Part shown: positions 3,759-37,984 of the stretch, piece after piece
Layout of the letters: each line of letters opens with the position of its first letter
Numbering within the stretch: position 1 is the stretch's first letter
Source: Candidatus Omnitrophus magneticus
GTDB lineage: Bacteria > Omnitrophota > Gorgyraeia > Tantalellales > Tantalellaceae
Length of the DNA stretch: 64,000 bases
Direction of reading: 5' to 3'
Assembly (NCBI GenBank): GCA_000954095.1
Contig: JYNY01000232.1
Span: forward strand, 20,424-84,423
Translations under genes and position numbers: made by a program
Notes under the pieces: generated by a model
Databases searched by the model: none
What the model saw: only the letters and a program-made list of their open reading frames with translations
What the model was told of the DNA's origin: nothing

Positions 3759-3789
3759 GGATTCCCGCTTTCGCGGGAATGACAGAATG
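3759..3789 (-). repeat. Hairpin repeat family 1 (CATTCTGTCATTCCCGC-GAAA-GCGGGAATCC), inverted copy
   Basis: GGATTCCCGCTTTCGCGGGAATGACAGAATG is the exact reverse complement of the 6189-6219 copy. Confidence 0.9.
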
Positions 3790-6166: not shown

Positions 6167-6292
6167 CATTCTGTCATTCCCGCTTTCTCATTCTGTCATT
6201 CCCGCGAAAGCGGGAATCCATACAGGTTTTATAATATTTTAAAAATATTTATAATTTTGAGTTGTTAAATCCAGTTACGCAAAAACTCTAAT
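6167..6292 (+). repeat. Hairpin repeat family 1 (half copy 6167-6183, full copy 6189-6219) plus adjacent family 2 tail
   Basis: The full hairpin has an 8-bp stem ATTCCCGC/GCGGGAAT with loop GAAA. The tail ATACAGGTTTTATAATATTTTAAAAATATTTATAATTTTGAGTTGTTAAAT..AGTTACGCAA.AACTCTA recurs at 37151-37225, and inverted at 59927-59965. Confidence 0.9.
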
Positions 6293-12019: not shown

Positions 12020-12050
12020 CATTCTGTCATTCCTGCGCAAGCAGGAATCC
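12020..12050 (+). repeat. Hairpin repeat family 1, variant with compensatory stem change
   Basis: CATTCTGTCATTCCTGC-GCAA-GCAGGAATCC. The C:G pair of the consensus stem is replaced by T:A, and the loop changes from GAAA to GCAA. Confidence 0.9.
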
Positions 12051-34925: not shown

Positions 34926-35717
34926 TTATTTTTTTTTACAAATCAATATCATATCTGAAGCAGTCGCCCACGGTAAAAAATTCTTACAAAAAACTGCTAA
35001 TTTTATTCCTAATTTATTCGCTCCGTCATAAGACAATTTATCTCTAAACATTGAAGAATACGCTATGAGCGCGTGTTCCTGATCCATCGGTATTATATCA
35101 AGAATATCAAATCCCGATTGTTTCAAAATACCGCTTATTTCAGTTATGTCAAAATGCTGTTCCCAATAAGAAAATTTTTCTTCTTTCCCAAAAAATTTTC
35201 TTATTGTCTTATTTTTTTTTAGAAAAGTCAAAGGATAACTAATACGCTCAAATATAGATGTACGCGGTATTTTAACCAAAAAAATCCCATTTTTTTCCAG
35301 CACTCTAAACGCTTCTTTAACAGCTTTCACCGGGCCTGCCGTAAAATGTTCTATAACGCCTAACGATAAATACGCGCCAAAATAATTATCAGGAAAAGGC
35401 AAGTTTTCAACATTAGCGCAAAATAGTATATTAGAAGAATCATATTTATTTATTTCTTTTAAAGGCGCTAAATTATAATCTATTCCTATTATGTTATATC
35501 CTAAAGATTTCAACTTTATTAAGTATGGCCCGAGCCCGCATCCTCCCTCAAGTATACGTTTATCCCTTGGAAGATATTTTAAAAAAATTTCCATCTGTTC
35601 AGACACCCTTGGATAATCAAAAATTTCCATTATTTCAGGAAGGCCTTTCTCTTCCCAATTTTTTTCCCAAGCCATTTTAGTGTCTTGATCTATTTTTGTA
35701 TTTTTCTCTGACCTCAT
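34926..35717 (-). CDS. Class I SAM-dependent methyltransferase
   Basis: 263 aa with motif I ILEGGCGLGPYLIKL. The start overlaps the wecB stop (ATGA-type coupling). Confidence 0.8.
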   Translation of the reverse strand: MRSEKNTKIDQDTKMAWEKNWEEKGLPEIMEIFDYPRVSEQMEIFLKYLPRDKRILEGGCGLGPYLIKLKSLGYNIIGIDYNLAPLKEINKYDSSNILFCANVENLPFPDNYFGAYLSLGVIEHFTAGPVKAVKEAFRVLEKNGIFLVKIPRTSIFERISYPLTFLKKNKTIRKFFGKEEKFSYWEQHFDITEISGILKQSGFDILDIIPMDQEHALIAYSSMFRDKLSYDGANKLGIKLAVFCKNFLPWATASDMILICKKK

Positions 35718-36862
35718 ATGCCGTCAATTCCTTTTTTGGATTTAGATTCCAACAAAATATTTGTTATTTTCTTAGCAGACATCCCATCCCCGTAAGGATT
35801 TTTCGCTCGCGACATTTTTATATAAACAGTTTTATCATCCAATAATTGTAGCGTGTTACTTACGATATCATCTGTTTTAACCCCTACTAATCTGGCGCAT
35901 CCCGCTTTTATTCCTTCGGACCTCTCGGTCACATCCCGCATAATAAGAACAGGCTTATTAAAACTGGGCGCTTCTTCCTGTATTCCTCCAGAATCAGTTA
36001 AAATTAAATACGCCCGTTTTATAAGCGCGACAAACGCCTCATATCCCAATGGTTCTATAAGATGTATTCTCTCCACGCATTTTAAAATTTTGTTAACCGA
36101 TATCCGCACATTAGGATTCATATGCACAGGATAAACTATTTCCGCGTCCGGCCTCAACACAACTATTTTTTTTAAAGCCGCGCAAATATTATCCATGTCG
36201 CTTCCGAAACTTTCTCTTCTATGCGCCGTTACTAAAATAATTTTTTTATCATTAGAAATTTCCGGCAATTCATTAAAAAACTTTTTTCCCGCGTTTTTAT
36301 CAATTTTGTTAGATGTGAAAAGAAGAGCATCTACTACAGTATTTCCAGTTACAAATATTGAAGACTTCCGAATATTTTCTTTTATAAGATTTTTTTTATT
36401 TTGTTCAGTCGGAACAAAATGAAAATCCGCTATACGGCTTATCAACGCGCGGTTTATTTCTTCAGGAAACGGCCGATATTTGTCATACGTCCTGAGCCCC
36501 GCTTCAACATGGGCTATTTTTATTTTTTTTAAAAAACCCGCTAGACTTATTATAAAAGCTGTTGTCGTATCCCCTTGCACCAAAATAATATGAGGTTTTA
36601 TTTTATCAAGAATAGGCTGTATCTTTATTATTGCCGCTACTATTATTTCTTCTATAGTCTGTCCTTTTTTCATTATATTAAGATCATAATCCGGTGTTAT
36701 TTCAAAAGTACTAAGGACTTGCCTGACCATCTCTTTATGCTGTCCGGTGAGGCACACAAAAGACTTAATATGTTTTTTATTTTTCTTAAATTCAAGAATA
36801 ACAGGCGCAAGCTTCACTGCTTCAGGTCTTGTGCCAAACACCGTAAGAATTTTCATCGGCAT
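35714..36862 (-). CDS. wecB: UDP-N-acetylglucosamine 2-epimerase (non-hydrolysing type)
   Basis: 382 aa. KILTVFGTRPEAVKLAPV, VQGDTTT and HVEAGLRT motifs are typical of WecB/MnaA. Confidence 0.9.
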   Translation of the reverse strand: MPMKILTVFGTRPEAVKLAPVILEFKKNKKHIKSFVCLTGQHKEMVRQVLSTFEITPDYDLNIMKKGQTIEEIIVAAIIKIQPILDKIKPHIILVQGDTTTAFIISLAGFLKKIKIAHVEAGLRTYDKYRPFPEEINRALISRIADFHFVPTEQNKKNLIKENIRKSSIFVTGNTVVDALLFTSNKIDKNAGKKFFNELPEISNDKKIILVTAHRRESFGSDMDNICAALKKIVVLRPDAEIVYPVHMNPNVRISVNKILKCVERIHLIEPLGYEAFVALIKRAYLILTDSGGIQEEAPSFNKPVLIMRDVTERSEGIKAGCARLVGVKTDDIVSNTLQLLDDKTVYIKMSRAKNPYGDGMSAKKITNILLESKSKKGIDGI

Positions 36863-36956
36863 AAATAACTCCGTATATTTTTTCTATTGCCTATTTAAAA
36901 ATATTGTAAGCACTAAGCGGTTAATAATAAACTTTTCTATATCCTTTAGAAAACAT

Positions 36957-37150
36957 CATTCTGTCATTCCCGCGAAAGAGGCTGTGTCACAACTACGATT
37001 TTTTAGTTTTTTAAAATCTTTCCACTCCCTTTTTACCAGTATAGATTCCTGCCTACGCAGGAATGACAGCGAGTTTACGCTATTTTTACTAGGTTTACTC
37101 CACTTTTAAAATGCGATACTAGTTGTGACACAGCCTCGAAAGCGGGAATC
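36957..37150 (+). repeat. Hairpin repeat family 1 copy split by a 160-bp insertion in its loop
   Basis: The left arm CATTCTGTCATTCCCGC-GAAA ends at 36977, and the right arm GAAA-GCGGGAATCC starts at 37138. Confidence 0.9.
36978..37137 (+). mobile_element. MITE-like 160-bp non-coding insertion with 18-bp perfect terminal inverted repeats
   Basis: GAGGCTGTGTCACAACTA (36978-36995) pairs with TAGTTGTGACACAGCCTC (37120-37137). It is flanked by a direct GAAA duplication (36974-36977 and 37138-37141), and it carries an internal inverted family 1 hairpin at 37046-37070. Confidence 0.75.
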
Positions 37151-37272
37151 CATACAGGTTTTATAATATTTTAAAAATATTTATAATTTTGAGTTGTTAA
37201 ATTAAGTTACGCAAGAACTCTATTGCCTACAATAAAAAAAAATGGAAAGTCTTCTAATAATTTGTTTTAACC

Positions 37273-37381: not shown

Positions 37382-37984
37382 TTAGACATTTCTTCTGTCA
37401 TCAAAAGCGCGTTGCAAAGTGGCGATATCAACGTATTCCAGCATACCTCCGGCAGGAACTCCTCTGGCTAAACGTGAAATAATTATTTTGAATTGTTTAA
37501 GAAGTTCAAAAAGATATAAAGCAGTAGTCTCTCCCTCAGTTGTAAAATCCGTGGCAATAATAATTTCAGACACAGTCCCTTTTTTCACTCTAGCTACTAA
37601 TTCTTTAATTTTTATATCATTAGGCCCCAACCCGTCAATCGGCGAAAGTTCGCCTAAAAGAACATGATACACCCCATGAAATATTCCTGATTTTTCTATT
37701 GTACTCACCGCGCCGGGATCTCTTACCACGCAAATTTTAGAACGGTCGCGTCCGGTATCCATACAAATCGAACAAAAATCGTTTTCGCTTAAATTATTGC
37801 ATATTTTACAAAATTTTACGATTTCTTTAACTTTTTGTATAGCGTCTATAAGCCTTAATACGTCGTGTGGAGAGGACTGCAAAATATGAAATGTGATTCT
37901 TTCGGCAGATCTCGGGCCTATCCCCGGCATCCTAGTTAATTCTTCAATAAGAGCGGCCATGGCAGGAGGAAATATTTTTTTCAT
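37382..37984 (-). CDS. recR: Recombination protein RecR
   Basis: 200 aa with HhH LPGIGPRSAERI, a C4 zinc finger CKICNNLSENDFCSIC, and a Toprim region. Confidence 0.95.
   Translation of the reverse strand: MKKIFPPAMAALIEELTRMPGIGPRSAERITFHILQSSPHDVLRLIDAIQKVKEIVKFCKICNNLSENDFCSICMDTGRDRSKICVVRDPGAVSTIEKSGIFHGVYHVLLGELSPIDGLGPNDIKIKELVARVKKGTVSEIIIATDFTTEGETTALYLFELLKQFKIIISRLARGVPAGGMLEYVDIATLQRAFDDRRNV

Follow-up and report, generated by a model that had tools for sequence, protein, structure and literature searches.

A 160-bp element with probable IS1182-family ends in the loops of repeated hairpins of Candidatus Omnitrophus magneticus

Introduction

The staphylococcal elements IS1272 and TnSha1, both of the IS1182 family, target stem-loops (Wan et al. 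2017, PMC5678879; Furi et al. 2016, PMC4923244). Their insertion deletes all or part of the stem-loop, leaves no target duplication and shows no preference for primary sequence (PMC5678879, PMC4923244). Some members of the family target palindromes (Siguier et al. 2015, as cited in PMC5678879 and PMC4923244). In the structure-dependent model developed for IS1272, one pathway (Fig 13, pathway c) yields a duplication of the loop only, when the element ends are joined at the 5' ends of the loops (PMC5678879). The REP-targeting insertion sequences (ISs) on record belong to the IS3, IS110, IS4, IS256 and IS5 families; IS1182 is not in this list (Tobes and Pareja 2006, PMC1525189).

Here we analyze a window of 64 kb (positions 20424-84423 of contig C233) from the 3.15-Mb, 656-contig assembly of Candidatus Omnitrophus magneticus (GC ~35.8%). 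A preliminary description of this sequence had reported a 160-bp insert, without a credible ORF, in the tetraloop of a hairpin repeat, and had predicted an autonomous partner with matching ends. We describe the insert, referred to below as the MITE, its copies and target hairpins in the genome, and the family to which its ends point.

Results

Anatomy of the insertion locus

The 160-bp insert at 36978-37137 splits a CCCGC-GAAA-GCGGG hairpin in its 4-nt loop (Table 1). The locus reads ...CATTCCCGC GAAA [GAGGCTGTGTCACAACTA ... TAGTTGTGACACAGCCTC] GAAA GCGGGAATCC..., or, with more of the host repeat included, ...TCTGTCATTCCCGC GAAA [GAGGCTGTGTCACAACTA ... TAGTTGTGACACAGCCTC] GAAA GCGGGAATCCAT... 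The insert begins with GAGGCTG and finishes with CAGCCTC, and its ends are 18-bp terminal inverted repeats (TIRs) that are perfect reverse complements of each other, with GAGGCTGTGTCACAAC as the MITE-type terminal inverted repeat. Formally, the duplication could be 4, 5 or 6 bp long, as C..G is the closing pair of the stem in every case and the first and last bases of the element are G and C. Only a length of 4 bp gives symmetric element ends in both orientations, and we therefore take the duplication to be 4 bp. The coordinates, the perfect TIRs and the duplicated GAAA loop of the preliminary description were thus verified.

Table 1. Coordinates of the MITE, its host hairpin and related hairpins in the window.
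Feature	Position	Strand	Remarks
Left part of host hairpin repeat, ending in stem arm ATTCCCGC (36966-36973)	36938-36973	+	Same ~40-bp flank family adjoins other copies
Left copy of duplicated loop GAAA (target-site duplication)	36974-36977	+	
MITE, 160 bp, youngest subfamily	36978-37137	+	Identical to C497:4488 and C21:1106; 99% to C119:8296
Left TIR GAGGCTGTGTCACAACTA	36978-36995	+	Identical 18-mer is the end of an IS1182-type element in locus L075
Inner hairpin ATTCCTGC-CTAC-GCAGGAAT, CCTGC stem type of host repeat family	37045-37064	+	
Right TIR, perfect reverse complement of left TIR	37120-37137	-	
Right copy of duplicated loop GAAA	37138-37141	+	
Right stem arm GCGGGAAT (37142-37149) and right part of host hairpin repeat	37142-37177	+	
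Unoccupied target hairpin ATTCCCGC-GAAA-GCGGGAAT	6198-6217	+	Paralogous empty site, not orthologous
Unoccupied target hairpin, opposite orientation	3761-3780	-	
CCTGC-GCAA-GCAGG hairpin variant	12029-12048		

At up to 3 mismatches, the TIR 18-mer occurs in the 64-kb window at two sites only, the two ends of the insert (0 expected from shuffled sequences), in agreement with the earlier observation that the IS families of the window have other ends. No ORF is contained within the insert. The one ORF that overlaps it (36747-37109) starts in the antisense strand of the neighbouring gene, so that the insert can indeed be regarded as lacking a credible reading frame. An Rfam search of the element gave no match near any threshold, and a promoter and terminator scan detected AT-rich background and nothing more. 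The MITE lies in a 519-bp spacer between a gene of 382 aa (35714-36862, minus strand) and an ORF of 200 aa (37382-37984, minus strand).

The insert also holds a further hairpin unit, as had been noticed, with a stem of the CCTGC type. When folded as single-stranded DNA, the region forms a single long hairpin composed of the host stem, a GAAA/GAAA internal loop, the TIR stem and the inner hairpin (-38.2 kcal/mol, z = -7.5).

Copies across the genome

The expectation that further copies exist was borne out by 44 strong BLAST matches to the MITE and 72 TIR matches in the genome. There are ~25-30 full-size and ~15 truncated copies. We tabulated 18 full-length copies that keep both TIRs; more copies are interrupted by contig ends or other ISs. 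Both flanks are available for 17 of the 18, and in 14 of these 17 the 4-bp loop of the respective host hairpin is directly duplicated. Four copies read ...tcattcccgc GAAA [M] GAAA gcgggaatcc... (where M is the MITE), and nine read ...ggattcccgc TTTC [M] TTTC gcgggaatgac..., with the host repeat in reverse orientation. One copy, in C21, reads ...cattcctgc GCAA [M] GCAA gcaggaatcc... and occupies the GCAA-loop variant of the hairpin. The MITE is thus present in both orientations relative to an asymmetric host repeat, and the check proposed beforehand, whether other copies sit in hairpin loops with GAAA-type duplications, came out positive, including GCAA in a GCAA-loop hairpin. Counting all junctions with enough flank, 52 of 76 TIR junctions adjoin a 4-nt loop preceded by ATTCCCGC (at most 1 mismatch).

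Over their 160 bp, the copy in the window and those at C497:4488 and C21:1106 show 100% identity, whereas identity between their 60-bp flanks is only 63-77%. The copy at C119:8296 is 99% identical to these three; its host repeat has the reverse orientation, and identity between its flanks and those of the three is 67-93%. Such near-identical elements within divergent flanks indicate that the element entered hairpins that had already diverged, and the four copies at separate loci are recent independent insertions. Three older copies (C165:8290 and two in tandem in C627) share 82-89% identity with the young ones, and their flanks are unequal or inverted, which we attribute to putative recombination between oppositely oriented copies, a process expected to exchange flanks in just this way. 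Small size, absence of coding capacity, TIRs, a target duplication that tracks the loop and many dispersed copies together make it very likely that the element is a real site-specific MITE.

Parts of the MITE also occur in larger repeats. About 15 contigs of 1.5-2.7 kb (C340, C273, C504, C462, C108, C433, C649 and others) contain a multi-copy segment with an AAA-ATPase-like gene of 326-570 aa (KRIDMRIQKLPVGYSDFKT...) and, behind it, hairpin repeats in a mosaic together with a truncated right MITE half. There is also a still larger family of 189 ORF fragments (..FNITGFCRPEKHYMLDP..HAPRQTGKTT..), one of which was checked by Pfam and gave no transposase. Tandem arrays with a period of ~207 bp are found at C382:33400-34000, C627:9560-9930, C198:12440-12640 and C204:38340-38560. 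Each unit combines a hairpin repeat with a left MITE half that has diverged (GAGGCTGTAACGCAATTAC..., 77% identity with positions 1-92) and whose end resembles the CGCAATTA ends of IS1182 relatives from Planctomycetota.

Target hairpins

We counted filled and empty hairpins in the genome. Hairpins with a CCCGC stem and a GAAA/TTTC loop are filled in 13 cases and empty in 54. Those with a CCTGC stem and a GCAA/TTGC loop are filled in 1 case and empty in 68 outside MITEs (104 in all). The difference between the two hairpin types is significant (Fisher p = 5e-4 to 2e-5), so that shape alone does not account for the choice and stem or loop sequence, or history, matters too.

The inner hairpin of the MITE, of the CCTGC type, has a TTGC loop in older copies and a CTAC loop in the young subfamily. 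MITE-family DNA contains 53 of the 121 CCTGC-type hairpins of the genome, but none of the CCCGC type. Thus, with a CCTGC-type hairpin inside and a CCCGC-type hairpin as host, the MITE spreads one hairpin type and lands in the other.

A genome search for all sequences that split a hairpin half-site recovered just the MITE and a small nested hairpin insert. This second insert occupies the same host hairpin as ATTCCCGC-[CCCGTGTCACGGCACGGGGTAAACTACA]-GCGGGAAT, a small hairpin within the larger loop with no obvious duplication, and is present at C71:4162, C165:25715, C222:24920, C382:9199 and other sites.

Family of the ends

Metagenome contigs were scanned for exact matches to the TIR 18-mer, which gave 25 loci, nearly all with the 18-mer at the boundary of an element. 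In locus L075, the 18/18 match is the left end of a 1317-bp element whose right end, read inwards, is GAGACTGTGTCACAACTT. This element encodes DUF772 and DDE_Tnp_1/DDE_Tnp_1_6 domains in an IS1182-type architecture, with the gene interrupted, and is flanked by the palindrome halves CGGGGCTTTA..TAAAGCCCCG. In six contigs from related sediment samples, the end with the TIR 18-mer abuts CCCTCTCCC, and the one contig in which both flanks are readable (L051) has the matching arm GGGAGAGGG on the far side of the element. In metagenome contigs besides L075, the 18-mer is found at loop-like sites of CCCTCTCCC..GGGAGAGGG hairpins. Judged by its ends, the MITE is probably IS1182-derived.

A tblastn search with the L075 protein detected one homologue in the genome of the window, on a contig of 1482 bp (C595). 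Its ORF of 475 aa is uninterrupted and free of stops, and matches the IS1182 family transposase profile NF033551 with 372.8 bits (cut-off 270) over profile positions 3-487 of 488, as the sole match above the cut-off in the genome. The contig extends 17 bp upstream of the ATG and 40 bp beyond the stop codon, so that the IS ends are absent; a break just outside the ORF is what would be expected if the IS ends recur elsewhere in the genome. C595 and the MITE have no k-mers in common, no overlap of the C595 ends with the MITE or with other contig ends was found, and the exact protein has no record in public assemblies. The GC content of the gene (35.4%) is close to the genome mean (35.7%) and below that of all relatives (39-43%), which argues against contamination.

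Relatives of C595 with 62-69% protein identity were examined at 20 metagenome and 5 genome loci. Their ends, among them those of L092, L080, L077 and L081, read CAGGCTGTGTCGCAATTA or CAGACTGTGTCAYAAT... and are identical to the MITE TIR at 14-15 of 18 positions, and variant MITE copies (GAGACTGT..., ..TCATAAC.., ..AACGCAATTA) further narrow the gap. Outside the TIRs, the subterminal sequence of the MITE has no significant similarity to the relatives' ends. L092 is a complete element of 1663 bp (63% identity to the C595 gene; ends 15/18 identical to the MITE TIR). Its site reads ...aaagatgtcattcccgc GAA [CAGGCTG...CAGCCTG] GAAA gcgggaatccag..., with a 3-bp duplication. It thus occupies, in another organism, the loop of the same GTCATTCCCGC-GAAA-GCGGGAATCC hairpin (gtcattcccgc-GAA[IS]GAAA-gcgggaatcc), and its left junction is shared by L080, from a Pirellulales MAG.

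Duplications made by the autonomous relatives are 3 bp long (GAA, AAT, ATT, ACT) instead of 4 bp, and many of these elements are located at the foot of a repeat (..gtcATT / AATgac..) rather than in a loop. Among metagenome and MAG loci, IS1182 relatives L093-L102 and L085-L104 recur at ..GTCATT | AATGAC.. with AAT/ATT duplications. These sites are the conserved foot of palindromic repeats of the GTCATT...AATGAC type and suggest a clade-wide link of these ISs with that widespread repeat class.

Search for an autonomous parent

TIR, half-site and relaxed-end searches of the assembly detected no element that combines matching ends with a transposase. A relaxed search with the first 12 nt of the TIR (up to 2 mismatches) returned no multi-copy genome sequence beyond those related to the MITE family. 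Thus, no other resident IS has similar ends, IS3 included; the resident families are IS4, an IS1634-like group, IS3, IS21, IS200, IS256 and IS630. The MITE is absent from 40 related genomes, the TIR occurs at the level of the control across 400 genomes of the phylum, and 185,579 species genomes contain no exact TIR match.

Several sequences were considered as the parent or its end and rejected. The truncated right halves (query 58-160) on ~15 short contigs lie beside the AAA-ATPase-like gene in the larger multi-copy repeat and carry no transposase. At C223:23939-25247, TIRs surround a 1.1-kb gene, but this is an IS630-family element inside a MITE at CTAG, with a TA duplication. At C228:54, a MITE TIR is followed by different sequence because another multi-copy IS has cut into it. 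C198:20468 is a lone degenerate MITE end beside glycosyltransferase genes.

Two of these sites document insertions into the MITE itself. The IS630-family element (362-aa open frame) is found in two MITE copies (C223:23960-25102 and a junction at C223:736-881), at the same CTAG near the right TIR and with a TA duplication; either IS630 target specificity struck twice or the composite was duplicated. The other multi-copy IS (end ..TTAGCCCATCTTCCGCTATTCGAGACACAAG.., >30 copies) has cut into the left MITE TIR at position ~16-19 (C228:1-71).

The predicted autonomous partner was therefore recovered in part: there is no assembled element with matching ends, but the genome contains one intact IS1182-family transposase gene, on a contig without both IS ends, whose relatives have very similar ends and use the same hairpin. 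As no assembled element joins the MITE ends to a transposase, the partnership of C595 and the MITE is one that we infer. From sequence comparison, C595 is the most likely source of transposase for the MITE; whether its enzyme actually moves the MITE appears to us an evenly balanced question.

Alternative explanations

The MITE might instead be an orphan or relic whose parent has been lost, with C595 failing to recognize its ends, or with cross-mobilization by a resident DDE element (IS4, IS1634-like, IS3, IS256 or IS630). The missing parent in the assembly would fit this explanation, as would the absence of the TIR from the 40 relatives, its chance-level occurrence in the 400 genomes of the phylum, and the distance of C595 from its closest known relatives (62-69% identity), which make 3-bp duplications. 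Against it, the four 99-100% identical copies at different loci indicate recent movement, and the relaxed search (12 nt, up to 2 mismatches) revealed no other resident IS with similar ends. Moreover, the single IS1182 gene is intact with a GC content that matches the genome, and its contig ends just beyond the ORF, as expected for repeated IS ends. We consider this explanation unlikely.

Alternatively, the hairpin halves and the 160-bp core could constitute one long repeat variant that spreads as a unit, through recombination or because it is mobile itself, with GAAA as part of the unit. The flanks of most copies are repeats of one family over ~40 bp per side, a truncated right half has been amplified ~15-fold within the larger repeat by the AAA-ATPase-like gene, and tandem arrays of a half-element exist, all in line with this idea. 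Against it, the asymmetric host repeat surrounds the core in either orientation, the flanking 4-mer varies with the host loop (GAAA, TTTC or GCAA), and flank identity is only 63-77% between copies of 100% identity. Furthermore, the same 18-bp end is found in unrelated hairpins of other organisms, and elsewhere a full IS occupies the same hairpin. A long repeat variant without duplicated flanks, named at the outset as the finding that would speak against an insertion, is excluded by these orientations, by a duplication that follows the loop and by identical cores in divergent flanks. We reject the explanation, which is largely refuted by these observations and very improbable.

We give next to no credence to movement as single-stranded DNA by a Y1 (HUH) transposase (an IS200/IS605-type PATE or a REPIN) or by a REP-targeting IS110/IS1111-type recombinase: the genome has 17 copies of an IS200-type Y1 transposase gene, a hairpin is a natural substrate of such enzymes, and IS110-family elements are well known in REPs (PMC1525189), but long perfect TIRs and a target duplication are features of neither IS200/IS605, REPIN nor IS110, insertions are found in either orientation with respect to the loop strand, the subterminal hairpins of the IS200 copies are of a different kind and no IS200 copy lies within 300 bp of a host hairpin, and the MITE ends match IS1182-type DDE elements.

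The IS200-type element is ~550 bp long with a 142-aa Y1 gene (C333:3594-4144 and 16 other copies), and its hairpins, CCCCGCC-TGTAAA-GGCGGGG, are unrelated to the host hairpins. With the Y1 genes carrying unrelated hairpins and located away from the host hairpins, a RAYT-type origin of the repeats is without support here.

Discussion

The explanation that we favour, and hold to be probable, is that the 160-bp insert is a non-autonomous transposon (MITE) with IS1182-family ends, served in trans by a transposase that most likely comes from C595. A DDE transposase supplied in trans would bind both 18-bp TIRs and pair them, and the element would be excised in a cut-and-paste (or copy-out) DDE reaction. 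The ends would then be joined to the CCCGC-GAAA-GCGGG hairpin on either side of its loop, at one position per strand and with an offset of 4 bp. When this stagger is repaired, only the loop would be duplicated and both stem arms would stay intact, which would explain the loop sequence of the respective host hairpin on both sides of each copy. We infer this strand-transfer geometry; the enzyme may read either the hairpin or cruciform shape or the short sequence.

The insertions represent a natural data set on the attack of IS1182-type elements on hairpins, with at least 14 independent loop duplications, both orientations and a measurable preference between two hairpin types. The published IS1182 cases, IS1272 and TnSha1, leave no duplication, and loop-only duplication was just a predicted branch of the model. 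The MITE also explains part of the mosaic repeat islands and of the heavy fragmentation of the draft genome, and its analysis flags C595 as a probable active transposase contig.

A broader and tentative reading, which we regard as rather doubtful, is that an IS1182 clade with xAGRCTGTGTC ends has kept the GTCATTCCCGC-GAAA-GCGGGAATCC landing pad across PVC phyla (the Omnitrophota genome and Planctomycetota MAGs), with MITEs that carry hairpins of the same family as cargo. The basis for this reading is that the MITE spreads the CCTGC-type hairpin and lands in the CCCGC type. If true, IS, MITEs and hairpins would form a self-seeding system, and IS1182 MITEs, not a RAYT, would account at least in part for the dispersal of the widespread 'IPAKAGI'-type hairpin repeats. 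The 4-bp loop duplications would then provide evidence from nature for the loop-only pathway of the structure-dependent model.

How does the MITE compare with described systems? IS1397 is said, in work attributed to Clement et al. in 1999, to insert in the loop of palindromic units with a duplication of 3-4 bp. Like IS1397 and ISKpn1 (IS3 family), the MITE appears as a DDE element specific for repeated extragenic palindromes. These and the other REP-targeting ISs differ from it in having other transposase families, different ends and autonomy; the MITE ends are GAGGCTG...CAGCCTC and not the TG...CA of the IS3 type. REPINs with RAYT and IS200/IS605 PATEs are set apart by the presence of TIRs and a target-site duplication in the MITE, and the 17 Y1 genes of the genome are associated with other hairpins.

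With IS1272 and TnSha1 the MITE shares the transposase family of its candidate partner (NF033551), TIRs, a stem-loop or palindrome as target and insertion in both orientations. In contrast to these elements, it keeps the stem, duplicates the 4-nt loop, strongly prefers one hairpin type and is non-autonomous. Replacement of the stem-loop as in IS1272 is not what we find, both stem arms being kept and the loop duplicated. The IS1182 elements of the C595 clade (L092, L080, L077, L085-L104) resemble it in their CAGRCTGTGTC... ends, 14-15/18 identical to the MITE TIR, but they are autonomous (~1.66 kb), have C..G as terminal pair where the MITE has G..C, and make 3-bp duplications. Having ends in common with IS1182-type elements, in a genome with an IS1182-family transposase, the element joins the known hairpin-seeking behaviour of the IS1182 family as an IS1182-type MITE with loop-specific insertion, and is not a new kind of system.
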